Shown piece by piece: positions 23,514 through 35,622 of a DNA stretch of 36,723 nucleotides. How positions within the stretch are numbered: position 1 is the stretch's first letter; each line of letters begins with the position of its first letter. Position numbers and translations under genes: made by a program. Source of the DNA: a virus (Duplodnaviria; Heunggongvirae; Uroviricota; Caudoviricetes); the IMG/VR virus record IMGVR_UViG_2851976983_000007; one strand, written 5' to 3'. The notes under the pieces were generated by a model. The model was given only the letters and a program-made list of their open reading frames with translations. It did not search any database and was not told where the DNA came from.

Positions 23514-25265
23514 ATGATTCAGGACGCTTTTGTGCGCCAGCGTGCGCGGCAACTTTACTGGCAGGGTTATCCGCCCGCAGAAATATCACGTCTGATGGGA
23601 ATAAACCCGAACACGATTTATGCGTGGAAAAAACGCGACCAGTGGGATGAAACGCCACCCGTGCAGCGTGTCACGCAGTCCATCGATGCGCGCCTCATCC
23701 AGCTCACTGAAAAACAGAATAAAACAGGTGGTGACTTCAAGGAAATAGACCTGCTGACCCGGCAGCTTAAAAAACTGCATGATGGCCAGCCGGATGCGAC
23801 GGCCACAGGAAAGAAAGGCCGGGCGAAAAAACTCAAAAATCATTTCACGCCGGAACAGATTGCCGCACTGCGGGAAAAAATCATCAGCAGGCTGGAGTGG
23901 CATCAGCGGGGCTGGTTTGACTCCCTGACCCTTTGCAGGGAAGCCGGGATACGTAACAGGATGATCCTGAAATCCCGACAGATTGGGGCGACCTGGTATT
24001 TTGCACAGGAAGCGCTGCTGATGGCGCTGCGTGACGATGTGGCGCAACCTTACCAGCGTAACCAGATTTTTTTGTCTGCGTCGCGTCGTCAGGCGTTCCA
24101 GTTTAAAAGCATTATTCAGAAGGCCGCGGCTGAAGTTGATGTGGAGCTGAAAGGGGGCGATAAAATCATCCTCTCAAACGGCGCAGAGCTGCATTTTCTC
24201 GGCACTTCTGCTGCATCGGCACAGTCCTATACGGGCAATTTTTATTTTGATGAATTTTTCTGGGTCAGTCGCTTTGCCGAACTGCGCAAGGTGGCTGGCG
24301 CTATGGCAACCCTCAGCGGACTGCGGCGCACCTACTTCTCCACGCCATCCACCGAAACGCACGAGGCATACGCCTACTGGAACGGCGACCGCTGGAACGA
24401 GAAAAAGGCCACGCATAAACGCCAGCGTTTTTCTGTGGACTGGAAAACGCTGCATAACGGGCTTATCTGCCCTGACCGGACGTGGCGGCAAATTGTCACG
24501 CTGGAAGATGTGGTTAAACACGGCTGGAAACACACCGATATCGACGAAATTCGTGATGAAAACACCGAAGACGAGTTCCTCAATCTCTATATGTGTGAGT
24601 TTGTCCGCGAAGGGGAATCGGCATTTAACCTGAATATCCTGATTGGCTGCGGTGTTGACGGATACGACGACTGGAAAGACTGGAAACCTTTTGCTCCCCG
24701 CCCGATGGGGAATCGTCCGGTATGGATTGGGTATGACGCAAACGGCAGCAGTGGCAACGGGGACAGCGGCGCTGTGTCCGTGGTGGTTCCTCCGGCTGTT
24801 CCTGGTGGCCGTTTTCGAACGGTGGAGACGCGACGCGTTCAGGGGCTGGAGTTTGAAGAACAGGCCAGAGTCATTGAAGAGTTCACGTGTCGCTACAACG
24901 TGGAACACATCGGCATTGATGTGACGGGCGGGAACGGGGAGGCTGTTTATCAGATAGTGAAGCGGTTTTTCCCTGCTGCTATTCCGTACACCTTCACGCT
25001 GTCATCCAAACGGTCGCTGGTACTGAAAATGCTGCAAATAATGCGTGCCGGACGGTGGGAATACGATCGCGCCGAACGCGAGCTGGTCGCGGCCTTTAAC
25101 GCCGTGCGTAAGGTGAAAACACCGGGTGGCTTTATCACTTACGAAACGGACCGCGCGAGGGGGATCAGCCACGGCGACCTTGCGTGGGCAACCATGCTTG
25201 CTGTCATTAACGAACCAATTGGCGGCGAAGGAGAAAACGAGCGTTTCACGGTTATGGAGTTCTGA
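23514..25265 (+). CDS. P: Terminase ATPase (large) subunit P
   Basis: 583 aa; divergent from the O operon as in P2. Confidence 0.9.
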   Translation: MIQDAFVRQRARQLYWQGYPPAEISRLMGINPNTIYAWKKRDQWDETPPVQRVTQSIDARLIQLTEKQNKTGGDFKEIDLLTRQLKKLHDGQPDATATGKKGRAKKLKNHFTPEQIAALREKIISRLEWHQRGWFDSLTLCREAGIRNRMILKSRQIGATWYFAQEALLMALRDDVAQPYQRNQIFLSASRRQAFQFKSIIQKAAAEVDVELKGGDKIILSNGAELHFLGTSAASAQSYTGNFYFDEFFWVSRFAELRKVAGAMATLSGLRRTYFSTPSTETHEAYAYWNGDRWNEKKATHKRQRFSVDWKTLHNGLICPDRTWRQIVTLEDVVKHGWKHTDIDEIRDENTEDEFLNLYMCEFVREGESAFNLNILIGCGVDGYDDWKDWKPFAPRPMGNRPVWIGYDANGSSGNGDSGAVSVVVPPAVPGGRFRTVETRRVQGLEFEEQARVIEEFTCRYNVEHIGIDVTGGNGEAVYQIVKRFFPAAIPYTFTLSSKRSLVLKMLQIMRAGRWEYDRAERELVAAFNAVRKVKTPGGFITYETDRARGISHGDLAWATMLAVINEPIGGEGENERFTVMEF

Positions 25266-26311
25266 TGAGCAGAAAAAATAAAAAAGTGCGCATGAGTTCA
25301 CGCATTGATCTCGCTGATGCGCTCAGGAAAGAATCATCGCTCAGTGCATTCACATTTGATGGTCCTTATCGCCTGACCGGGCATGACCTGCTGGACAATA
25401 TGTACTGTGCTGATAACGGGCGATGGTATGAAACCCCGGTGGACTGGTACGGTCTGGCAAGAGCCGCCCGGCAAACGTCCTGGCATCAGTCTGCGCTTTA
25501 CTTTAAGCGCAATGTATTGCTCGGTTGCTACATCCCGCACCCGCTGCTTTCCCGGCAGGATTTCTCGGCGCTGGCGCTGGACTGGTTTGTGTTCGGTAAC
25601 GCATTCCTTGAGCTTCGGAGCAATATGCTCGGCGAACCACTTAAATTACGGCACGCACTGGCGAAATACATGCGACGCGGAAGCGATCTTGAATCATGGT
25701 GGTATGTGCAGGATGGCAAGGACGCGTTTCAGTTTCGCCCTGGCAAAGTGTGCCACCTGATGAATCCGGACATTAACCAGGAAATTTACGGCATGCCGGA
25801 ATATCTTGGCGCATTACTCTCGGCCAGCCTGTCTCATTCGGCGGACATGTTCAGAAAACTGTATTACGACAATGGATCCCACGCCGGGTGCATCATCTAC
25901 ATCGGTGCAGCGCAGGTAAACCGCGAAAGCATGGACTCCCTGAAAGAAACGTTACAGGGTGCGCGTGGTGGTGGTGCGTTTAAAAACGTGCTCATCCATG
26001 CGCCCAACGGGGGCAAAGAGGGGGTGCAAATTTTGCCGTTCCAGCAGATCACCGCAAAGGATGAGTTCATGAATGTTAAGGCGGCATCCCGTGATGATGT
26101 GCTGGCTGCGCACCGCGTTCCGCCGCAACTGATGGGGGCGATGCCGGGCGAAAAAAGTGCGTTTGGTGATGTGGAGAAGGCCGCGCGGGTTTACGCAATT
26201 AACGAGCTGATGCCTGTCATGGAGGCCATGAAGCACATCAATGACTGGCTTGGCGAAGAGGTGATCCGCTTTAACCCTTACGCACTGTTAGACACCCAGC
26301 CCACATCCTGA
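25265..26311 (+). CDS. Q: Portal protein Q
   Basis: 348 aa; ATGA overlap with P stop. Confidence 0.9.
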   Translation: MSRKNKKVRMSSRIDLADALRKESSLSAFTFDGPYRLTGHDLLDNMYCADNGRWYETPVDWYGLARAARQTSWHQSALYFKRNVLLGCYIPHPLLSRQDFSALALDWFVFGNAFLELRSNMLGEPLKLRHALAKYMRRGSDLESWWYVQDGKDAFQFRPGKVCHLMNPDINQEIYGMPEYLGALLSASLSHSADMFRKLYYDNGSHAGCIIYIGAAQVNRESMDSLKETLQGARGGGAFKNVLIHAPNGGKEGVQILPFQQITAKDEFMNVKAASRDDVLAAHRVPPQLMGAMPGEKSAFGDVEKAARVYAINELMPVMEAMKHINDWLGEEVIRFNPYALLDTQPTS

Positions 26312-26362: not shown

Positions 26363-26767
26363 ACTCTCCAGCTCCTGTATCAGTCAGATAATTTCACGAC
26401 GCTTTCCTGCTGATTGCCATTATCGACAGTCAGACTCTTACGCAATCCCACCGCGTTGACTGCATGTTCTCGCCGTCTCAGTGCGATTTTGACGGCCTTA
26501 CCTTTCACCCCATCAAATCAAAAGCCCTCACGTCTTTTTCACGCTCAGCGTGAGAAATACAGCCATTCTGTTGTATCTCTGCGACATCGTTCAGGGAATG
26601 CTATTTACCCCCTGAAACGCGGGCTGTTCCCCCGTCACCTGCGCGCAGAAAAAACGCGTTTTTTTGTGCACGTACGGATCCTTGACGGATCCAGCCACCA
26701 CGCGGGCCGGAAGTACAAAAAGTCGTTCAAAAAAATTGTGCAAACTTGTGCACTATCGTGCAAACAA

Positions 26768-26795
26768 AAAAAGCGCCTTATCGGCGCTTCAAAAG
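26768..26795 (-). terminator. Intrinsic terminator (AAGCGCC-GATAA-GGCGCTT followed by T-run on the minus strand)
   Basis: Seen in sequence directly downstream of the 89-aa minus-strand ORF. Confidence 0.45.
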
Positions 26796-26797
26796 TA

Positions 26798-27067
26798 TCA
26801 ATTGTTGCTGTGTATTAATCGCCAACCACGAACATATGCTTCATAGGCATCTCTGTGCCTTACAGTTCCAGCCTGGCTAAACGGAATGTTAGCTAAAACT
26901 AAATCATTCTGAGCCATAGCGCGTCCTTCAAGCGCATCTTTTATGCCTAGCTCAAAAGCACAGGCAGCGCATTTGTGCCGACCTTCTTGTCCTTGATATT
27001 CAGGGAGAGACAGAAATGTTGGATTATAACGATGAGGGTTCTTGCAAATACCTGTTTTAGCCCGCAC
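26798..27067 (-). CDS. Hypothetical 89-aa protein (GTG start), low-GC hotspot cargo
   Basis: GAGGT SD 9 nt upstream of GTG; terminator immediately downstream; no recognisable family. Confidence 0.4.
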   Translation of the reverse strand: MRAKTGICKNPHRYNPTFLSLPEYQGQEGRHKCAACAFELGIKDALEGRAMAQNDLVLANIPFSQAGTVRHRDAYEAYVRGWRLIHSNN

Positions 27068-27092
27068 TTTATTTACCTCATAGGAAAAATAT

Positions 27093-27237
27093 GCGTGCCT
27101 TTACAGAGGTGCGTGTAAGCAATAAAATATACGACGCACATTTTGATTTACTTCGGAAGGCACGCATATCAGGTTAAGTGAGTCCGACCGAGTTTTACGC
27201 CCCAATAGTTGCTGCTATTGGGGCGTTTTGCATGGAC
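27093..27237 (+). ncRNA. Candidate structured small RNA or regulatory element: 13-bp long-range inverted repeat (ATATGCGTGCCTT ... AAGGCACGCATAT) followed by an intrinsic terminator (CGCCCCAATAG-TTGCTG-CTATTGGGGCG-TTTTG)
   Basis: Seen in sequence; lies antisense to the upstream region of the 89-aa gene; no promoter verified. Confidence 0.3.
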
Positions 27238-27431
27238 AATGCCGCGCAATTATCTTGTCGCTCACAATGCGAACGATCTTACAAAAAGGCACATTACTGT
27301 CAAGATAATTGATCGTTTTAATCGATAGATAATAGACAATCTATTTGTTTAACAGATCGATTATTGAAGTAAGTGTGCCAAGTGGAATGATACTGTCTCT
27401 ATAAACGTGAGCATTTTTCGCGCAGATGCTT

Positions 27432-27743
27432 TTACTCAGGAAATAACGCCCGGATATTCCCAGCCATCTGGCTGGTTATCTTAGCCACTGGTGCAGACTG
27501 TGCTTCAAACTTTTTTGAGCTGATTTGTGTCACAGGTAACATCTCATCATCAGCCCATGCGGCCAGTCGGTAAGCCTCTGCCGGATTCGTCTTCAGAAGT
27601 GCCAGCCCGGCCAGAAAAGCCACGCGTTGGCCGCTTTTGCGGGCTTCTGGTGTAAGGCTGTCCAGCCAGGCGCATGCTTCTCCTTCGTTCTTGACGGCAG
27701 CTGGCTTCAGATAGAAACTTATCCGTCTGGTTGGTGTTGTCAT
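27432..27743 (-). CDS. parR: ParR-like centromere-binding protein (type II partition adaptor)
   Basis: ISFYLKPAAVKNEGEACAWLDSLTPEARKSGQRVAFLAGLALLKTNP parallels R1 ParR IAFKLNPDVNQTDKIVCDTLDSIPQGERSRLNRAALTAGLALYRQNP; AAGGAG SD; start 5 nt after the parM-like stop; track ORF extends to 27878. Confidence 0.75.
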   Translation of the reverse strand: MTTPTRRISFYLKPAAVKNEGEACAWLDSLTPEARKSGQRVAFLAGLALLKTNPAEAYRLAAWADDEMLPVTQISSKKFEAQSAPVAKITSQMAGNIRALFPE

Positions 27744-27747
27744 TGGT

Positions 27748-28707
27748 TTACTCCTTGTCCATTGCGTACAGCCCATTAACCAGAGCAAACTGTGGCACCC
27801 CGTCCGCGATGAAAGTCGCATTAACTCCGCAGGCTTCGCGGATAGCGGGTGCCACAATCTCCGCCCCGCCACCGACAACCATCACCCGCCCGTAACCCGA
27901 AAAACCCGCCAGCGCGCGGATCACGCGTTGTTTCAGTGTTTCTTCCTTTTCACGAATAACCGCCATCAGGCTGTCGTAATGCGCGTCATTGTGGATGTGC
28001 TGGCGCAGCCAGGCTTCATCATGGCGATGTTCGATAATGGTATTGGCGATGTGGTGACTGGTACGCATACCGTTAGTGGCCATCACCGACAGTACGGCAT
28101 CGGCCATCAGGGAAACGCCTACGTGTGGATCGCAAAACACCTGGCTGATACCTGCCAGTTGTCCCTGAACCTTTGCCACATCCAGCGTGGTTCCGCCTAA
28201 ATCCACAATCAGCAGGGATTCAAACGGACTCATGTCAGCCAGTGCTTTAAAGCCAGCCGGAATGGATTCAGGCATAACCCGTACGTTACGGATAGTGAAT
28301 GCTTCGCCGTTCTGGTACTCCACCGGGCGCATGACGTTCGCTTTTTTGCGGTTGATGTTGGCCATGTCCGGCTGTGCGTTTGTGTCGAAATATTCGCTCA
28401 GTGGCAGGGTGACAACCACATCCACTTCCTGTGGTGTGATGCCTGATTTGACCAGCGCGTGATGAATGGCAATGACATTCACATCGCTGTACTGGTATTG
28501 CGTGTCGGTCGTCTGGACAAAGCGATCGCTGACCGGATCAAAACCATAGCGCACGCCATCAAGCATGTAGTTCGCGGGCTGCGTGCCACCGAACGGCGCA
28601 GACCATTCCGACTTGAAGCTGTTCGGGCTGATGGCGTTGCGGCGTTCGCCGTTCTCAGTCCATGCCAGCTTGATGTTGGTGGAGCCGTCATCGATACAAA
28701 TTTTCAT
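27748..28707 (-). CDS. parM: ParM/StbA-like actin-family ATPase (type II partition NTPase)
   Basis: MKICIDDGSTNIKLAW...YSDVNVIAIHHAL...VMPESIPAGF...LLIVDLGGTTLDV...GYGRVMVVGGGAE matches R1 ParM along its length. Confidence 0.9.
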   Translation of the reverse strand: MKICIDDGSTNIKLAWTENGERRNAISPNSFKSEWSAPFGGTQPANYMLDGVRYGFDPVSDRFVQTTDTQYQYSDVNVIAIHHALVKSGITPQEVDVVVTLPLSEYFDTNAQPDMANINRKKANVMRPVEYQNGEAFTIRNVRVMPESIPAGFKALADMSPFESLLIVDLGGTTLDVAKVQGQLAGISQVFCDPHVGVSLMADAVLSVMATNGMRTSHHIANTIIEHRHDEAWLRQHIHNDAHYDSLMAVIREKEETLKQRVIRALAGFSGYGRVMVVGGGAEIVAPAIREACGVNATFIADGVPQFALVNGLYAMDKE

Positions 28708-28736: not shown

Positions 28737-28850
28737 CGCTTACGGGATTCTGAAATCCCGTTTTTGCCTGTTTTATGCGCGCTTCATATATCGCGGCGCG
28801 TTTTTTGCTCATTTACGGGATTTGTGAATCCCGTTTCTGTCTGTTTTTTG
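28737..28850. promoter_or_regulatory. Two direct copies (about 73 bp apart) of a 20-bp palindrome ACGGGATT-N4-AATCCCGT each followed by a T-rich tract, upstream of the parM-like gene; candidate parC-like centromere/operator
   Basis: Seen in sequence at about 28742-28761 and 28815-28834; architecture resembles ParR sites flanking the par promoter. Confidence 0.5.
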
Positions 28851-28987
28851 TTTCCACTGGTCAGGCCACCCCGCAGCAGGTCTGCTTTGCGGCGGGCGCG
28901 TTCAGTGGTTTCACTGATTCTCTGTGCGTGCTCTGCGTCGCGGATGGCGCGCAGCATGTCAGAAAGCACGGTAACGGGTGTTTTCAT
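28784..28987 (-). CDS. Hypothetical small protein (67 aa) between A and the par module; its 3' end overlaps the palindromic repeats
   Basis: ORF only; weak SD. Confidence 0.3.
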   Translation of the reverse strand: MKTPVTVLSDMLRAIRDAEHAQRISETTERARRKADLLRGGLTSGNKKQTETGFTNPVNEQKTRRDI

Positions 28988-29185: not shown

Positions 29186-31606
29186 TCACTGCGGTGCAAT
29201 GATGCTGCCGTCGACGTACAGACTGCCGCCCCGTAACAGGTGCTGCATCTGCTGTTCACCGATATGCAGGCCGAGAGATTCAGCAGACTCCCGCCATTCT
29301 TTAGCGAGTAACTCGTGGTTATCAGGCAAAGGCCGTGGCTGTTTGCGGCTCTGTGTCCAGTTCTGCATTTCATCACTGCTGTTTTTTGCCTGTTTGTCAC
29401 GCAGCGAACGCATCAGCGCCCGGCGTTCGTGCCGTTTCAGTGAGCGCATCCATTCATTCACGTCAACGCCGTCAGGAAGCTGCGGCCACGGTGCTGGCCG
29501 TTCTTCCGGCTGTTCTGTCCCGTTGTTGTCCGTTTCCTGTACACGGGGACAGTTATTGCCACGAGTCCAAGGGGCGGCAGGGCCGCCCTGAAGGTCAAAA
29601 CCATTTTCGCGGGCGCTGTCTTCCGCTTCCGGTTTACGTCTTACCAGCTTCCAGTTATCCGGATGTGTGCACACACGGGAAGACTCCCCGATGAGCGGTG
29701 ACCAGATCCCGTAAATCTGTACGCTCTGTTCGCCGTAATCGTTCAGCTCATCTGCGAGGTCGTAGGCGGTGCGAATCAGGTAGTCTTTGCGTGGAACAAG
29801 TACGCCGCCCTGTTTTTCAATGTAGGAGGCAAAACACCCGGCATCAGCGGCAGCGAGCACTGCATCCATTGCGTCATCCTTCAGTCGTTGCGGGCCTTCC
29901 GGGTTGCGTGCCATCTGGCTGGCAAGGCGGCGCAGTTCACGCCACACCTGACGGGAGGGGATGCCAAAGAACTGGAACTGGCGGACCCGGTGAAGGCGCG
30001 CCCAGCCGATGGCGCGCTCCACGCTCTCGGCCATTGATTTTCCGGTTTCGTGGTCAACGCGTGGCTTGCCCGTTTTCGGGTCGATACCATCCACGGCGCG
30101 GCTGTCCAGGTTCTTTCCGATGTAGGTGGCGATGTAGCTGGTTGGCGTGCCTTTTGAGCCGTCGACGTACTCCGCCTTAAAACGCGGAGTTATGTCATCG
30201 CCCAGCTCGTGGCGGTCTTCCTGAATGGCAATATCGCAGACGTGGGACACGATGGTTTCAATCTCGTCCGGATGTGCAAAGACCATCATATGCCAGTGCA
30301 CAGTGCCGTCATGGTGAGGCTCCACCGTGCGGATGCCATACCAGCGAAGACCGTCGCGGTTCAGTTTTTTGCGGACCGCCGCAAAAAACGTGTTAACCAG
30401 GTAATCGCTGGAGTCGCGCATGGTGGCCCCGTTCCATTTGGGATTCGGATGACCGTTCTCTGTTGTGGCGTGGTATTTTGACGGGCAGGTGACAGTCAGA
30501 AACACCGCTCTGTCGCCACGGGCTTCGGCCAGAAGTTCCAGTCCCTTCATGGTGGCCATCATTTCTGCCTTACGGTGAACCGGGTTACTTACTCCCGCGT
30601 AATACACCGTCTCGAGATCAATCGTGAACCCGTCTTCATTTTCCAGCATGAAACTTTTCAGGAAATCGCGTGTTTTCTCGCGCTGTGCGCGAAACTCGCT
30701 TAACGCGTCCTGGCTCAGATAGGGTGATGTTTTTCTGGAAACCAGACAGGCGGCGCGGAGTTGTTCTTCTCTCCACTCGCAACGTAACAGCCACAGTTTG
30801 CGTTTCCACCATTCCGCACAGGTCAGGCGAAGGATTGCGCCCGGCAGCAGCTCCGTGTCCGGTTCGTTCCTCCGGTCTTTGTCTGTTGTCAGTGCGTCAT
30901 AATGTGGAGGCATGGCGTGCAGGTGTAACGCCATGCGGGCCAGCATCTGATACGCCTTCAGCGTTACATCCATGGTCAGTTCGCCATCAGTAGCGCCAAA
31001 GCCATCGCAGAGTTTTTCGAAGGTGCTGCTGAACATCGCCGCCGTCATGGTGGCCAGCGTCTGTATCTGGTGTTTGTTGAGCTGCGGCAGGTAAAGCAAA
31101 TCGTCCAGGCGTTCGCGTCCGGCAAGGGAGCGATAACCCGGTGTCAGCCAGCGGTGATCGGTGCGGTCCAGACGTTCGAATATTTTGCACAGGGTTCCGC
31201 GCGCGTAGCGTTCCGCCTGCCAGCTCTTTTTGCCTTTCTGACGATCGGCTTCCTGCTTCTTGCGCAGGAAGGAGAGGTGGCGAATAAGCGGATCGCGCAG
31301 ATAGGACGGCAGCAGGCGCAGCGAGGCCATGGCTTCATCCACCGCGCCGCGTGCCTGTTTTCTGGCGTCTCCTGCCAGTGTGATGGTTTTGTCCTGTTTT
31401 TCCTGTGCGTCCAGGCTTTTATTAATCAGGTTGCCCAGCGGCGTGGCGGAGAACGCCGCATCAGCCATTTCCTGGCGGCGCTCGTTCTCTACCCGGTAGG
31501 CATCCAGCCAGGAGGAAAGCGCGGATTCAGGAGCGGAGATCCCCGTTCCTTCACGCCCCACTGCGTGGCGCGGTTGTTGCCAGTCCCTGATGTACTCTGC
31601 CGTCAT
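29186..31606 (-). CDS. A: Replication initiation protein A (rolling-circle endonuclease)
   Basis: 806 aa; ...[24 protein letters not shown]... parallels P2 gpA ...[22 protein letters not shown]... Confidence 0.9.
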   Translation of the reverse strand: [806 protein letters not shown]

Positions 31607-31612
31607 AGTGAT

Positions 31613-31978
31613 TTACTTCGTCATGCCATTCAGGGTGTCGCGGCAGACTGTAGCCAGCCGCTGAATTTCCAGCACGGTGTCTTCTGTGTCGGCATGGCGA
31701 TGTGTGATGCGGATGCTGTCGGCAATCACATCGACGATTGCAGAGGATGGGCGCTGGTAAATGCCAATAACGGACGGGGTGCCACCTTCAATGCGGTAAA
31801 GCCTGTAATTTCCCTCGTGGCTGTCAATCATGTAGCGACCATCAATAACAATCTTTCCGTCAGCGAGCTGCGGTACAGGCAGGGATTTCAGGTACATGTC
31901 ATAACGATCACGCACGCGAGCGGCAAGATCACGCTCTGTGTTGAGCAGGTATTCAAGAAAGTCGTTGGCGAGAATCAT
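31613..31978 (-). CDS. Hypothetical early protein (121 aa)
   Basis: ORF just upstream of A, overlapping its start; P2 orf80-83-like position. Confidence 0.55.
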   Translation of the reverse strand: MILANDFLEYLLNTERDLAARVRDRYDMYLKSLPVPQLADGKIVIDGRYMIDSHEGNYRLYRIEGGTPSVIGIYQRPSSAIVDVIADSIRITHRHADTEDTVLEIQRLATVCRDTLNGMTK

Positions 31979-32050
31979 TGCGGCAATCCTCTTGTTACAG
32001 ATGTGCGAAGGCCTCCCGCCGCAAGGTGCAGGAAAGGCCCGGAACAGGAA

Positions 32051-32281
32051 TTAATGGAGTTTGTTTTGCTGCTGGATGAGCTGTTGAAGCTCGTGCAGAT
32101 CATCCGCCAGATAGCTGAAAACAGAGGCGGAATAAATGTTTGATAGTGCGTGGCTGCGCTCATGCAACATATTGATGTGCATGATTTGCGCGACGCGTGA
32201 TGCGCGGGAAAGTCTGCGGTTGATTTCAGTCTGGATGTGACGACGCTCCGCGATAGCGCGGTGTGGTTTGCGGTTTGCCAT
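32051..32281 (-). CDS. Hypothetical early protein (76 aa, helical)
   Basis: ORF in early operon; the overlapping 205-aa ORF in another frame looks spurious. Confidence 0.45.
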   Translation of the reverse strand: MANRKPHRAIAERRHIQTEINRRLSRASRVAQIMHINMLHERSHALSNIYSASVFSYLADDLHELQQLIQQQNKLH

Positions 32282-32603
32282 GGTGTGGCCCCTTGTGTAG
32301 TAAGTTGTGAAAACTCACCATCCAGAGCTGCGAAACTGTGGGTGGCGAGACGTACGAGGTTCGCAGTACCGGCTACACAAGAACCCGGCCCGACCGAAGT
32401 CGGCCCCGTACGCCCCGCCATAATTCTGACGCGAAAAAAACGTGGCAATACAGTACGCACAAAAAAACCGCTGGCGCGGTTGTGCGCTTGTGTAGTCAGC
32501 AGGCTGCGAAACCCGGCACCCGTTTTGTGAGGTGCAGCGGAAATGTAACCTGACTGATTGCGGCATGGCAAGCGGTTTTTTTGTGTGTGCATGTTCTGGT
32601 TTC

Positions 32604-32903
32604 TTAGTGGTTCAGAAAAAAATCAAAAACCTTGTCAATGCGTTGCAGCAGCTCTTGCTGTATTGCTTTCGGCGTTTCCGGTTCGCCTGGCGCCTCCAAC
32701 GTCGCGCAGAAATCCTCGATTTCATGACGGAGCGTCAGGCGAATGGCGAGAGGTGTGGTTCTGGCGTGCTCCAGCTCATCCAGCAGCGCCAGCACAGCAG
32801 ACGGCGAGAGCATTGCGCGAAACGCCAGTAATTTTTGAGGCGTTGCCATTCGTTGCAGGTCAGTCGCCAGTTCGCGTAATTCCTGGTGGTTGATGGCGCT
32901 CAT
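32604..32903 (-). CDS. Hypothetical early protein (99 aa)
   Basis: ORF; stop/start overlap with the next gene. Confidence 0.5.
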   Translation of the reverse strand: MSAINHQELRELATDLQRMATPQKLLAFRAMLSPSAVLALLDELEHARTTPLAIRLTLRHEIEDFCATLEAPGEPETPKAIQQELLQRIDKVFDFFLNH

Positions 32904-33145
32904 GCTCTGGCTTCCTTCAGTAGCTGGTTAAACGTGTTGGTAAGTGGATTGCCGCACCCGAACGGCATCGGGTTTATCTGGTAAGAAAAGCGACCGCCTG
33001 TTTTGCGCTCTTTTCTTATGACTGAACCGCTGCGCCAGAGTCGGCGTAACTCCGCATTAATGGCTGTGGTTGGGGTATTCAGTGCTGCGGCGATTTCTCC
33101 ACCGCTACACCCCGGATTGGCGGCGATATAGTCCAGAATGGTCAT
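32900..33145 (-). CDS. Putative winged-helix DNA-binding protein (81 aa)
   Basis: MTILDYIAANPGCSGGEIAAALNTPTTAINAELRRLWRSGSVIRKER has helix-turn-helix character. Confidence 0.5.
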   Translation of the reverse strand: MTILDYIAANPGCSGGEIAAALNTPTTAINAELRRLWRSGSVIRKERKTGGRFSYQINPMPFGCGNPLTNTFNQLLKEARA

Positions 33146-33345
33146 CTGCGTGACTCCTGTACCTGTCGGATAAGGTTCACCCGCACCACATTCGTGGCGC
33201 AGAAGTAAGTGCCGTCAGTGAGATAGATGTGATGTGCATCCTTTTCTGAACGGTGTTTGTCGATTGTGGTAATCAGGCGTTCGTCGACTTCGTATTCACG
33301 CCCTCTGGAGGTAAAACGAACGACAGGAAAATGCTTAATTGCCAT
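33142..33345 (-). CDS. Hypothetical early protein (67 aa)
   Basis: ORF; GGAGG SD upstream. Confidence 0.5.
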   Translation of the reverse strand: MAIKHFPVVRFTSRGREYEVDERLITTIDKHRSEKDAHHIYLTDGTYFCATNVVRVNLIRQVQESRR

Positions 33346-33541
33346 TACGCCTCCTTGGCGTGTGCGAATACCTCCGCGAATGCGGATTGTTTTTACATTT
33401 TCTTATTTAATCTGTGGTTTTATTTGCTCTGTTATTCGCCAGTGAAAAAGCGTTCAATCTTTTTTATTGAATGAATAATTCGCATAATCCCAATAGCGCA
33501 GGCCACCGAAATAATCAGAACAAGCCATGAGATAAATATAC

Positions 33542-33784
33542 TCATGCGATATTCCCCAGCTCATACGGTTCAATATGTTCCCCGCATTCTGCGGCACAGA
33601 TCAGCTCGGAAAGTTCGTTAAGTGCATCCAGATCATCAGCGTAAAAAGCCACGTCATACAGACTTCGGATTGCTCTGGTCAATGAGTCACGGGCCGCACG
33701 TTCAGCATGAGCGCCTGATGCACTTAAGCGAAAATAAAAGCGCTCAAGTGCTTTGTTAATGAGAGTTTTATATTCTTTGCCCAT
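33542..33784 (-). CDS. Hypothetical early protein (80 aa)
   Basis: ORF only. Confidence 0.45.
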   Translation of the reverse strand: MGKEYKTLINKALERFYFRLSASGAHAERAARDSLTRAIRSLYDVAFYADDLDALNELSELICAAECGEHIEPYELGNIA

Positions 33785-33795
33785 CGCAACGCCCT

Positions 33796-34083
33796 TTAAT
33801 CTGCTTTCTGAATTTCAGTTTCTGAATCCATACAGATAATTTCGATATAGGGTTTATCGCCATTAACCTGACGAGCCTTTTCAGCTTCGCTAATGATTTC
33901 GCGTACGGTCTGGTACGGAAGTTCCACGATCAGTCGCGTGCCGTTCAGATAAACGTAAGTGGCTTCGGCGGCTCCGTTTTTCCCCGCCGGAGCCACTCCA
34001 TCAATAGCGGATGCGCGTAATAACAGTTCACCGCGAAAATCAATAAAGCGGATAAATACACCTTGAGTATGGTCTTTAGTCAT
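33796..34083 (-). CDS. Hypothetical early protein (95 aa)
   Basis: Start at MTKDHTQGV with AGGTG SD; track ORF extends to 34143. Confidence 0.5.
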   Translation of the reverse strand: MTKDHTQGVFIRFIDFRGELLLRASAIDGVAPAGKNGAAEATYVYLNGTRLIVELPYQTVREIISEAEKARQVNGDKPYIEIICMDSETEIQKAD

Positions 34084-34093
34084 AAAGCACCTG

Positions 34094-34435
34094 TTATAAA
34101 TCAGCCTGTTTAATAAAACTCTGTCCACGCAGCAGACGATCAACCGTGCGAAGCGCTTCGTATAATGTGAAATCCTGCCCGAACTGATTGTCGCCGCTGC
34201 TCAGAGCAAAAATGCGGTTTCCGGTAAACGGATTGCGCGGGCATTTGTGGACCACGATTCCAGCTTTCTCAATCAGCCAGGCATGCTCGCCGATTTGTTT
34301 TACTGGGTAGCCATCCGGCGTTGCGTGTGTATCACTCAGGCTGTAGCGGATGTTGCTGCGTGATGCACTGGTAGCAAAACGGTTAGCGTGGCGTTCTGCA
34401 CCATTGCGAAAGCGTGAATTACGTTGCTGTTTCAT
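34094..34435 (-). CDS. Hypothetical early protein (113 aa)
   Basis: ORF only. Confidence 0.5.
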   Translation of the reverse strand: MKQQRNSRFRNGAERHANRFATSASRSNIRYSLSDTHATPDGYPVKQIGEHAWLIEKAGIVVHKCPRNPFTGNRIFALSSGDNQFGQDFTLYEALRTVDRLLRGQSFIKQADL

Positions 34436-34436
34436 G

Positions 34437-34544
34437 TTAAAGACTCTGTACAGATTTAATTATTCCGGCATAGAGGCCGAACTCAAAATATTTGCGATTA
34501 AATCGCATCGCATTGTTTTCACGTTTTGCGGACTGCTGGTTCAT
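34437..34544 (-). CDS. Small ORF (about 35 aa, MNQQSAKRENNAMRFNRKYFEFGLYAGIIKSVQSL) translationally coupled to the next gene
   Basis: Strong SD GGAGGCAAACGAAA before ATG; stop 1 nt before the next ATG; below the ORF-track cutoff. Confidence 0.35.
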   Translation of the reverse strand: MNQQSAKRENNAMRFNRKYFEFGLYAGIIKSVQSL

Positions 34545-34687
34545 TTTCGTTTGCCTCCGCACATGAGAATTGCGCCGCTTAAGAGGTAACCGAAGTTAAT
34601 TGATAGTATTACAATTAACATAAGGTCCAATTTGTCCATGCCACACATAATTACCCTCATTGCAGTAGTTGTGGGTTGTCAGGTTTC

Positions 34688-34894
34688 TCACCCGATAAAC
34701 CAGATAACAAACGCTATCAACATCGCCCCAATAGCTGCCGGGAAAAGTCCTTTGGTATAAGCGGCGATATATTCAATGCTGAGTTCAATAAAGCGTTCTT
34801 TATGTCCCGTTAACTTGCGAAACAAATAGATCTCTATTACGCCTATCTCAATAAAAACAAGGGTCAGAATGGCGCTGATGATATGGCTGGTCAT
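34688..34894 (-). CDS. Small membrane protein (68 aa, two TM helices)
   Basis: Hydrophobic segments ISAILTLVFIEIGVI and AAIGAMLIAFVIWFIG. Confidence 0.45.
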   Translation of the reverse strand: MTSHIISAILTLVFIEIGVIEIYLFRKLTGHKERFIELSIEYIAAYTKGLFPAAIGAMLIAFVIWFIG

Positions 34895-34900
34895 TTATGA

Positions 34901-35188
34901 CTAAAGTCCTAGCCACAACAACCATGCGTCGCGGCGTTCTTTCGGTTGCTCAAAAAACGCTTTGCGCATGCCTTCGTTAAATGCTGGCAGATATACCCAG
35001 TTTTCTGATGCACGCGTCTTTACTGAACCTGGTTTCACAAAGTCAATTGTTGGTAGCTTTGCTGCGTCAATCATGGTTCTGACTGTGGATTCCTTGCGGC
35101 CGATCATCTTGGCGAATAGTTGATATGGCACCGCTTCAAGTGGATATGGTGCTACCTGAATGAACCCCCCAAGCTCTGATTCGCTCAT
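34901..35188 (-). CDS. cox: Cox-like excisionase / early-promoter regulator
   Basis: ...VPYQLFAKMIGRKESTVRTMIDAAKLPTIDF...ENWVYLPAFNEGMRKAF...RDAWLLWLGL parallels P2 Cox ...IPYQEFAKLIG...RRMIDKGKLPVID...EYWVYLPAWNNG...RDGWLMWLGL. Confidence 0.8.
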   Translation of the reverse strand: MSESELGGFIQVAPYPLEAVPYQLFAKMIGRKESTVRTMIDAAKLPTIDFVKPGSVKTRASENWVYLPAFNEGMRKAFFEQPKERRDAWLLWLGL

Positions 35189-35262
35189 TGTGGTAATCTC
35201 CCTAATTCGTTCGAATGGCTCAAAATGGCTTATATCGGCTTATTTGAGTGTTTTTATGTTTG

Positions 35263-35308
35263 TGCCCGATGTGGCATGTTGTGATGGGGGATATGCCCGA
35301 TATGGCAT
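35263..35308. promoter_or_regulatory. Two direct repeats TGCCCGAT(G/A)TGGCAT, 31 bp centre to centre, in the cox/C divergent region; candidate C-repressor operators
   Basis: Seen in sequence; P2 C binds direct repeats at the early promoter. Confidence 0.45.
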
Positions 35309-35622
35309 CTTTGTCAAGCATGGGTGAAAAATTTCGCCTGATTCGTGAAGCAGAAGGTATGACCCGCCAGGAGTTTGCGGATTGTGTTGGGCTGCCTTAT
35401 GGGACGGTAACTAACTATGAGGTGAGGGGGAAGCAAGTAACAGAGGGTGCCTTACTTAAGGTTACGAAACACCCTAAATTTAAGAAGTATGCTTATTGGT
35501 TATCAACAGATGAAACGATGCCGGAGGTCGGGCAAATTTCTCCGGCTCTCTCTCTTGATGGTTCCTGCAATTCGGAGGGAGATCGCGTTTCAACCGAAAC
35601 AATCCAAAAATTATCCCGCTGA
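35302..35622 (+). CDS. C: Immunity repressor C (HTH)
   Basis: ...QEFADCVGLPYGTVTNYEVRGK...KHPKFKKYAYWLSTDETMPEVGQISPAL parallels P2 C ...QQLADLTGVPYGTLSYYESGRS...QTPQFTKYTLWFMTNQIAPESGQIAPAL; start uncertain (35284, 35302 or 35320). Confidence 0.7.
   Translation: MASLSSMGEKFRLIREAEGMTRQEFADCVGLPYGTVTNYEVRGKQVTEGALLKVTKHPKFKKYAYWLSTDETMPEVGQISPALSLDGSCNSEGDRVSTETIQKLSR

Follow-up and report, generated by a model that had tools for sequence, protein, structure and literature searches.

The stretch of DNA considered here (the window; 36,723 nucleotides) is a P88-like prophage of E. coli that matches Xuanwuvirus phages (Peduoviridae, P2 family). In its variable hotspot we identified a cassette that is probably best described as an accessory gene for a zinc-finger-like protein, the translation of which would be gated by an antisense RNA by means of a three-part switch in the mRNA leader, and the protein family of which is tied to GATC methylases and DpnII-type endonucleases. 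The features on which this reading rests are collected in Table 1.

Table 1. Position of the cassette features and of neighbouring genes (window coordinates unless indicated otherwise)
Feature	Position	Strand	Basis
Large terminase gene	23514-25265	+	
Portal gene	25265-26311	+	
Intrinsic terminator of the small gene, 8-bp stem (5 GC pairs), T run; left edge of the cargo	26790-26770	-	
89-aa CDS, GTG start, zinc-finger-like, phrog_3941	26798-27067	-	ORF list and HMM match
Shine-Dalgarno (SD) GAGG, 8 nt upstream of GTG	27079-27076	-	read from sequence
3' arm of putative leader stem, anti-RBS element	27089-27101	-	
Putative antisense promoter, TTTACA-17 nt-TAAAAT (-10 at 27123-27128), sigma-70-like, between the repeat arms	27100-27128	+	consensus scan
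Predicted cis-antisense RNA, ~97 nt, complementary to the leader of the mRNA, 5' arm included	~27134-27232	+	ends inferred from promoter and terminator
5' arm of putative leader stem, anti-anti-RBS element, within the antisense-covered stretch	27157-27169	-	
Antisense terminator hairpin, 12-bp perfect stem, 6-nt loop, then TTTT on the plus strand only	27197-27226	+	
Putative sense promoter, TTGACA-16 nt-TAAGAT, GATC over the -10 (TAAGATCG)	27303-27276	-	consensus scan; conserved in relatives
Imperfect palindrome, 26-nt arms, two GATC sites, directly upstream of the sense -35	27305-27364	.	
StbB/ParR gene	27432-27743	-	
ParM gene	27748-28707	-	
gpA gene	29186-31606	-	
95-aa gene and 92-aa homologue of a related prophage	2263-2550 and 2617-2895 of L004/L005	both -	

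Genomic setting of the cassette

The gpA-gpQ interval adjoining cos is a known variable hotspot of P2-like phages, in which toxin-antitoxin and defence genes gather (PMC9122126). The small gene of the window constitutes a single-gene accessory ("moron") cassette of about 665 bp, self-contained and spanning approximately positions 26765-27431, in this cos-proximal hotspot: it lies between gpA and gpQ, and close relatives carry other genes in its place. When the window was aligned with P88, similarity stopped at ~26764; the cargo differs from there to parR, and P88 has two unrelated genes between the equivalent point and parR. A preliminary description of this DNA had proposed a small ORF in a variable hotspot, and both the alignment with relatives and the published locus (PMC9122126) bear it out.

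Using a 651-bp query (26781-27431), we found the cassette in 172 of the 5426 complete E. coli genomes searched (about 3%), chromosomal every time and, in 165 of these 172, nearly full length with an identity of at least 98.6%; no copy was found among the plasmids of PLSDB. E. coli 503025 and K_EC180 are among the strains with a 100% identical cassette. The cassette is also common in prophages of Salmonella, Proteus/Providencia and Gilliamella. As the copies are found at different places in phage genomes (behind a CI-type repressor, alongside umuD-like genes or close to a holin gene), the cassette behaves as a mobile unit. In NZ_CM166350.1 an IS1-like element lies inside the cassette region 26781-27431, and in phage 503458 (L002) the small gene is frameshifted.

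Several other features of the prophage were recorded around the cassette and further to the right. Short repeats (TTGTGCAAAC, TTGTGCAC and CGTGCAAAC) at 26737-26765, where the block in common with P88 ends and just before the cargo, may be part of cos or of a terminase-binding region. The replication gene gpA seems to be split into an ORF of 806 aa and a separate ORF of 67 aa (28784-28987, minus strand) that matches the final 67 positions of the 855-position family profile; gpA of P88 is intact, a single gene of 2823 bp with its end 76 bp from parM. Possible causes of the split in the window are a frameshift (or pseudogene formation), rearrangement at this place and an error in the sequencing. 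Two 20-bp palindromes of the form ACGGGATT-N4-AATCCCGT, at 28742-28761 and 28815-28834, 73 bp apart and just upstream of parM, are candidates for the parC centromere of the ParMR system. The conserved block 27198-27377 was itself considered as parC or as the parMR terminator and was ruled out, as P88 has the same parMR genes without this block; the parC reading is further undercut by the position of the parC-like palindromes upstream of parM. In the early region, two adjoining matches exceed the Rfam gathering score, a C4 antisense RNA (32338-32425, minus strand, 83 bits) and an isrK Hfq-binding RNA (32461-32535, minus strand, 64 bits).

The small gene and its protein

The GTG-initiated ORF, its Shine-Dalgarno sequence and its downstream terminator are all found in the sequence as they had been proposed, and the ORF appears to be a real gene, since it matches phrog_3941 (E=6.3e-49, residues 4-89 against profile positions 1-86 of 86) and has homologues across many phyla. 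A TGAGGTAAAT block at the SD is conserved with L004 and L005; this related prophage encodes, at the same position, an unannotated homologue of 92 aa with ~57% identity. This cassette type carries a second gene after the small one, which encodes a protein of 95 aa (phrog_33929); RefSeq annotates this second gene and not the homologue.

Searches of Pfam, NCBIfam and PADLOC with the 89-aa protein returned no match, and the PADLOC-DB defence HMMs matched neither this protein nor its L004 homologue. The AF2 model, built on only 9 sequences, has four helices and a mean pLDDT of 82; no structural match to it was found in the PDB or BFVD, and the sole match of a sequence-profile search of the PDB was Trm112, with a non-significant E-value of 1.7.

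A word-indexed homologue search recovered near-identical proteins only, and it was the diverged L004/L005 homologue that then opened up the family. The subsequent profile search collected 511 representative clusters at E<=1e-3, with loci from Proteobacteria, Firmicutes, Bacteroidota, Spirochaetes, Myxococcota and other phyla, all of whose members are named "hypothetical protein" in the databases. Thirteen residues are invariant (C8, H12, R13, R30, H31, C33, C36, S64, Q65, G67, V69, R70 and H71), those from S64 onwards forming a S-Q-x-G-x-V-R-H block.

The genomic neighbourhoods of this family point to restriction and modification at GATC. Within 2.5 kb of the gene, 39 of the 105 loci with distinct proteins carry a GATC-type restriction-modification gene, usually on the same strand or in the same operon; the neighbours belong to the D12-class Dam methylases (PF02086), the N6_N4 methylases (PF01555) and the DpnII endonucleases (PF04556), and the orders Dam-small gene-DpnII-second methylase and Dam-DpnII-second methylase-small gene are frequent. 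Some 20 members have only unrelated genes around them, housekeeping genes included. Members in restriction-modification operons showed no antisense cassette, and the main phage-cassette proteins group together in a neighbour-joining tree, as a single clade separate from the proteins linked to restriction-modification. A second separate clade comprises proteins from Klebsiella, Citrobacter and Serratia (L108, L110, L111, L124, L127 and L134), whose loci have TGTAAA ~37-42 nt ahead of the start, an opposite-strand terminator and few or no GATC sites.

In relatives, the domain is fused to HNH_2, NOV_C, DndB(-like) and WYL domains, a pattern that fits a nucleic-acid-binding or recognition module. 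It also occurs as a tandem duplicate of 182 aa and as two N-terminal half-units fused to NOV_C; each unit in the fused and tandem members (P0010, P0095, P0101, P0077, P0037 and P0027) has the motif form C-x3-H ... H-x-C-x2-C. Given these neighbourhoods and motifs, the 89-aa protein is most likely a nucleic-acid-binding regulator, modulator or anti-restriction factor, which acts on, or together with, the methylation or restriction of GATC. Our literature search for a small DpnII-associated protein or for the cassette found nothing relevant, and no Dam methylase was detected among the eight prophage ORFs scanned in the stretch from gpA rightwards into the early region (29186-35622).

A predicted antisense RNA opposite the leader

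The preliminary description had noted the hairpin at 27197-27226 with its plus-strand T tail, which is present in the sequence, and had overlooked two promoters: one on the plus strand, directed towards this hairpin, and one on the minus strand, from which the mRNA of the small gene is predicted to start at ~27268-27270 and thus to have a leader of ~200 nt. A motif TTTAC(A/T)-TAnnnT, with a spacer of exactly 17 nt, lies opposite the gene in 41 of 41 aligned variants, and in the same 41 a GC hairpin with a T-rich tail follows 60-95 nt downstream on the same strand. Five stem pairs of this hairpin show double compensatory changes in relatives, and the predicted antisense RNA of the window has a fold z-score of -3.8. 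Because promoter and terminator are both conserved in every variant, an RNA of ~97 nt antisense to the gene leader is strongly suggested, and the convergent plus-strand transcript that had been postulated opposite the 5' leader gains a predicted start and end. In the mRNA, the complement of the antisense terminator corresponds to a 5'-proximal hairpin.

The upstream sequence, about 250 nt with a single architecture, always accompanies the gene in prophages of Enterobacterales, Proteus/Providencia and Gilliamella, with widely diverged sequences. In Rfam, where the families compared included sar, ctRNA_pGA1, Spot 42, C4 and others, the best matches of the window antisense RNA reached 22 bits against thresholds of 43-45 and involved the hairpin only; eight relatives gave no match.

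The inverted repeat as a stem of the mRNA leader

The perfect long-range inverted repeat announced by the preliminary description, ATATGCGTGCCTT / AAGGCACGCATAT, is present in the sequence, complementary at 13 of 13 positions with 55 nt between the arms; by chance, as judged from shuffles of the window, the 13-mer would occur 0.08 times. The features of the cassette go beyond chance because the layout recurs in ~41 diverged relatives, in which different sequences are still complementary.

The repeat and the terminator hairpin had been taken together as one plus-strand element, and here our analysis departs from that description. The end of the left arm falls within the antisense -35, so that this arm precedes the predicted start of the antisense transcript and is no part of a plus-strand RNA. 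The arm sequences vary between lineages with their complementarity kept: duplexes of cognate arms have a mean of -15.4 kcal/mol versus -8.4 for non-cognate arms, and 0 of 20000 permutations were as good, although this figure, like the other permutation and shuffle figures given here, overstates independence as the lineages are related. In an aligned group of 15 sequences, 92% of the cells in the stem are paired, with U-A to U-G variation and one invariant U·G, so that pairing is preserved on the gene strand only. A strand-neutral count gave 52 G·U against 29 A·C. Because the G·U pairs form on the gene strand only, we read the inverted repeat as a long-range stem of the minus-strand mRNA leader.

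RNAalifold, applied to a MAFFT alignment, did not recover this stem because the arms shift register between groups, and it was replaced by the cross-lineage duplex energies and a hand-specified structure. Covariation, which had been proposed as a check, is found for the hairpin and for the repeat alike; the pairing of the repeat is supported on the mRNA strand and not on the plus strand. A further perfect inverted repeat, of 11 nt, is CAATTATCTTG / CAAGATAATTG (27247-27257 and 27301-27311), one arm of which overlaps the sense -35 and the other of which lies at ~+12 to +22 of the predicted mRNA.

Predicted pairing with the ribosome-binding site and a proposed model of the switch

The 3' arm is also complementary to the SD and start region of its own lineage (cognate mean -10.4 kcal/mol versus -6.5; permutation p=5e-5). 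This RBS helix is 95% paired in the aligned group, with double changes in 3 of its 5 pairs, and its co-variation score was reached in 0 of 500 shuffles. In the window, GGCACGCAU of the 3' arm can pair with GUGCGGGCU, that is, with the GUG start and two codons. When the antisense-covered part of the leader was blocked in silico, the 3' arm shifted onto the RBS in 14 of 14 representatives; in some lineages (L054 and L076) the free leader already favours the fold with a closed RBS, so that the switch may be biased or act co-transcriptionally.

In the model that we propose, the minus-strand sigma-70 promoter would give an mRNA of ~500 nt that ends at the intrinsic terminator at the left edge of the cargo, and the convergent promoter inside the leader would give the antisense RNA, ending at its own hairpin. 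When the two arms pair with each other, the RBS would be free; if the 5' arm cannot take part, the 3' arm would instead pair with the region of the start codon and the SD. Binding of the antisense RNA, which is complementary to the 5' arm, should then release the 3' arm, lock the RBS and turn translation off. RNase III might also cut the duplex of ~100 bp, or attenuation might occur at the stem and U run, in addition to this switch or in its place. The sequence features, with their conservation and co-variation, and the gene neighbourhoods are seen in the sequences themselves; the transcripts, the direction of regulation and the activity of the protein are what we infer in this model.

Other readings of the cassette

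A different reading, which we regard as unlikely, is that of a type I toxin-antitoxin system, in which the 89-aa protein would be toxic (for instance by DNA binding or damage, like RalR or SymE), the antisense RNA would be the antitoxin and the pair would serve prophage stabilisation or abortive infection. In hok/sok, tisB/istR and zorO/orzO, cis-antisense control is combined with a structured leader and sequestration of the RBS, and the cassette follows this logic: 41 of 41 variants have a conserved promoter and terminator opposite the gene, and the RBS helix and the constrained folds indicate a structured leader able to close the RBS. Its location in a phage hotspot rich in toxin-antitoxin and defence genes agrees with such a role, and the IS1 insertion in one genome and the frameshifted copy in another would fit a costly gene. 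Type I toxins are small and usually hydrophobic membrane peptides, however, and the protein encoded here is a hydrophilic, soluble-looking domain with a conserved zinc-type C/H motif; PADLOC gave no match, and the members that lie in restriction-modification operons without the antisense cassette, or alone by housekeeping genes, are hard to square with intrinsic toxicity. On the same grounds (a zinc-finger-like protein with relatives in Dam/DpnII operons or standing alone), we do not retain the "toxin-like" label that the ORF had first received.

It is also conceivable, with a low probability, that translation is not the controlled step, and that the leader stem and its U run form a transcription attenuator, the antisense RNA acting on termination as in the pT181/pIP501 class, or that the convergent transcriptions interfere with one another. 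In favour of this, the window combines a 13-bp stem of high stability with UUUUU behind it, the 3' arm precedes a U-rich tract in most lineages, and the two promoters face each other at a distance of ~140 bp. On the other hand, the U tract doubles as the loop of the co-varying hairpin that sequesters the RBS, one lineage (L106) has no U run, and attenuation alone leaves unexplained the lineage-specific complementarity between the 3' arm and the SD and start region.

That the 13-bp repeat works at the DNA level, as a protein-bound operator on both sides of the antisense promoter or as the end of a mobile element, seems to us very improbable: the arms do flank this promoter and the encoded protein may bind DNA, so that autoregulation is conceivable, but pairing kept through G·U on the gene strand only is meaningless for double-stranded DNA, the same 3' arm co-varies with the RBS, and the arms lie away from the cargo boundaries with no transposase present. 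We give equally little credence to an independent trans-acting sRNA that overlaps the small gene incidentally, for although the plus-strand RNA would have its own promoter and terminator, with a U-rich tract ahead of the latter, it accompanies the small-gene family in the same register in every lineage, has no copy elsewhere in E. coli genomes or plasmids and matches no Rfam family.

Comparison with known regulatory systems

The closest parallel to the leader switch lies in the IncI-alpha/IncB plasmids, where the Inc RNA, antisense to the leader of repZ/repA, blocks an activating long-range pairing that keeps the RBS open. As in these systems, and more loosely as in hok/sok and other type I leaders, a short cis-antisense RNA would be produced from a promoter inside the leader of its target; it would leave the SD uncovered and cover an upstream element whose long-range pairing opens the RBS, and a local hairpin is predicted to close the RBS once this element is blocked. 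The cassette differs from them in its activating interaction, a plain stem rather than a pseudoknot, in the lack of any sequence or Rfam similarity and in its cargo, which is zinc-finger-like and linked to GATC restriction-modification, instead of a replication initiator or, as in type I systems, a membrane toxin. Convergent promoters with overlapping 5' ends are shared with RNA-IN/RNA-OUT of IS10 (and with finP/traJ), and the Dam-sensitive pIN promoter of IS10 may have a counterpart in the GATC that lies in the sense -10 and in the enrichment of GATC across the cassettes. Unlike in IS10, the overlap is of ~100 nt and upstream of the RBS, and not every lineage retains the same GATC positions.

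With regard to its cargo, the cassette invites comparison with the controller (C) proteins of type II restriction-modification systems, with which the family protein (~85 aa) shares its small size; in many DpnII-type operons of the Firmicutes type (Dam, small gene, DpnII), the family gene is directly upstream of the endonuclease gene and often overlaps it. In other operons, by contrast, the gene is last or convergent, and the window holds no endonuclease; the protein has no Xre-type helix-turn-helix (no HTH match in Pfam, and a predicted fold without a PDB match), and no C-box was identified. Its gpA-gpQ location, where the cargo varies between close relatives, is that of the cos-proximal cargo of P2 (old, tin and other defence systems), from which it is distinguished as a single 89-aa gene without a PADLOC match and with its own putative antisense regulator.

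In summary, the regulatory logic appears, by analogy, to be of a known kind, that of an antisense RNA blocking an activating long-range pairing, and neither of the two families, of the RNA and of the protein, nor their combination is described in Rfam, Pfam, NCBIfam, PADLOC or the literature searched.

GATC sites and Dam methylation

GATC is enriched in the cassettes, with 35 sites observed against 8.5 expected in 12 lineages. Around the sense promoter they fall within the -10 and ahead of the -35, and at the antisense start they fall in palindromes of 8-10 bp (GAGATCTC and GTGATCAC). In Dam-controlled promoters GATC is found inside core promoter elements, and the sense -10 of the window is TAAGATCG. 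The imperfect palindrome upstream of the sense -35 (Table 1) occurs as a motif in window-type and L004-type cassettes only, is absent from P88 and may be a regulatory site. Control by Dam would not be universal, because the antisense-start palindrome has been lost from the window-type and L004-type cassettes and the Klebsiella-type cassette has no GATC at all.

The hosts that bear the cassette are Dam-positive Gammaproteobacteria, whereas in other phyla the gene often lies beside a Dam-type methylase of its own, and this distribution suggests that the function of the protein depends on GATC methylation. A more specific proposal, which we put forward tentatively and with rather modest expectations, is that the small protein is an unrecognised accessory part of GATC-specific (Dam/DpnII-type) restriction-modification systems, which temperate phages of Dam-positive Gammaproteobacteria have captured and put under the control of an antisense-RNA switch bearing Dam sites.

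Significance of the cassette and of the protein family

If the model of the leader switch holds, the cassette would provide a comparatively well-supported riboregulator, absent from Rfam, in ~3% of complete E. coli genomes. We consider the cargo protein to be the more interesting part, more so than the regulatory logic. Its gene is often missed by annotation pipelines, as no annotation is given in several RefSeq records or for the L004 and L005 homologues, and the cassette offers a first handle on a widespread family of 511 representative clusters named only "hypothetical". The Dam methylase and DpnII neighbourhoods of this family suggest an overlooked fourth player in a classic type of restriction-modification system. 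Should the captured-accessory proposal be true, the small protein may be a reader of GATC methylation or a modulator of one of the two enzymes, methylase or endonuclease, and it could serve phages in anti-restriction or in epigenetic timing, with its expression confined to a particular state of methylation or replication.
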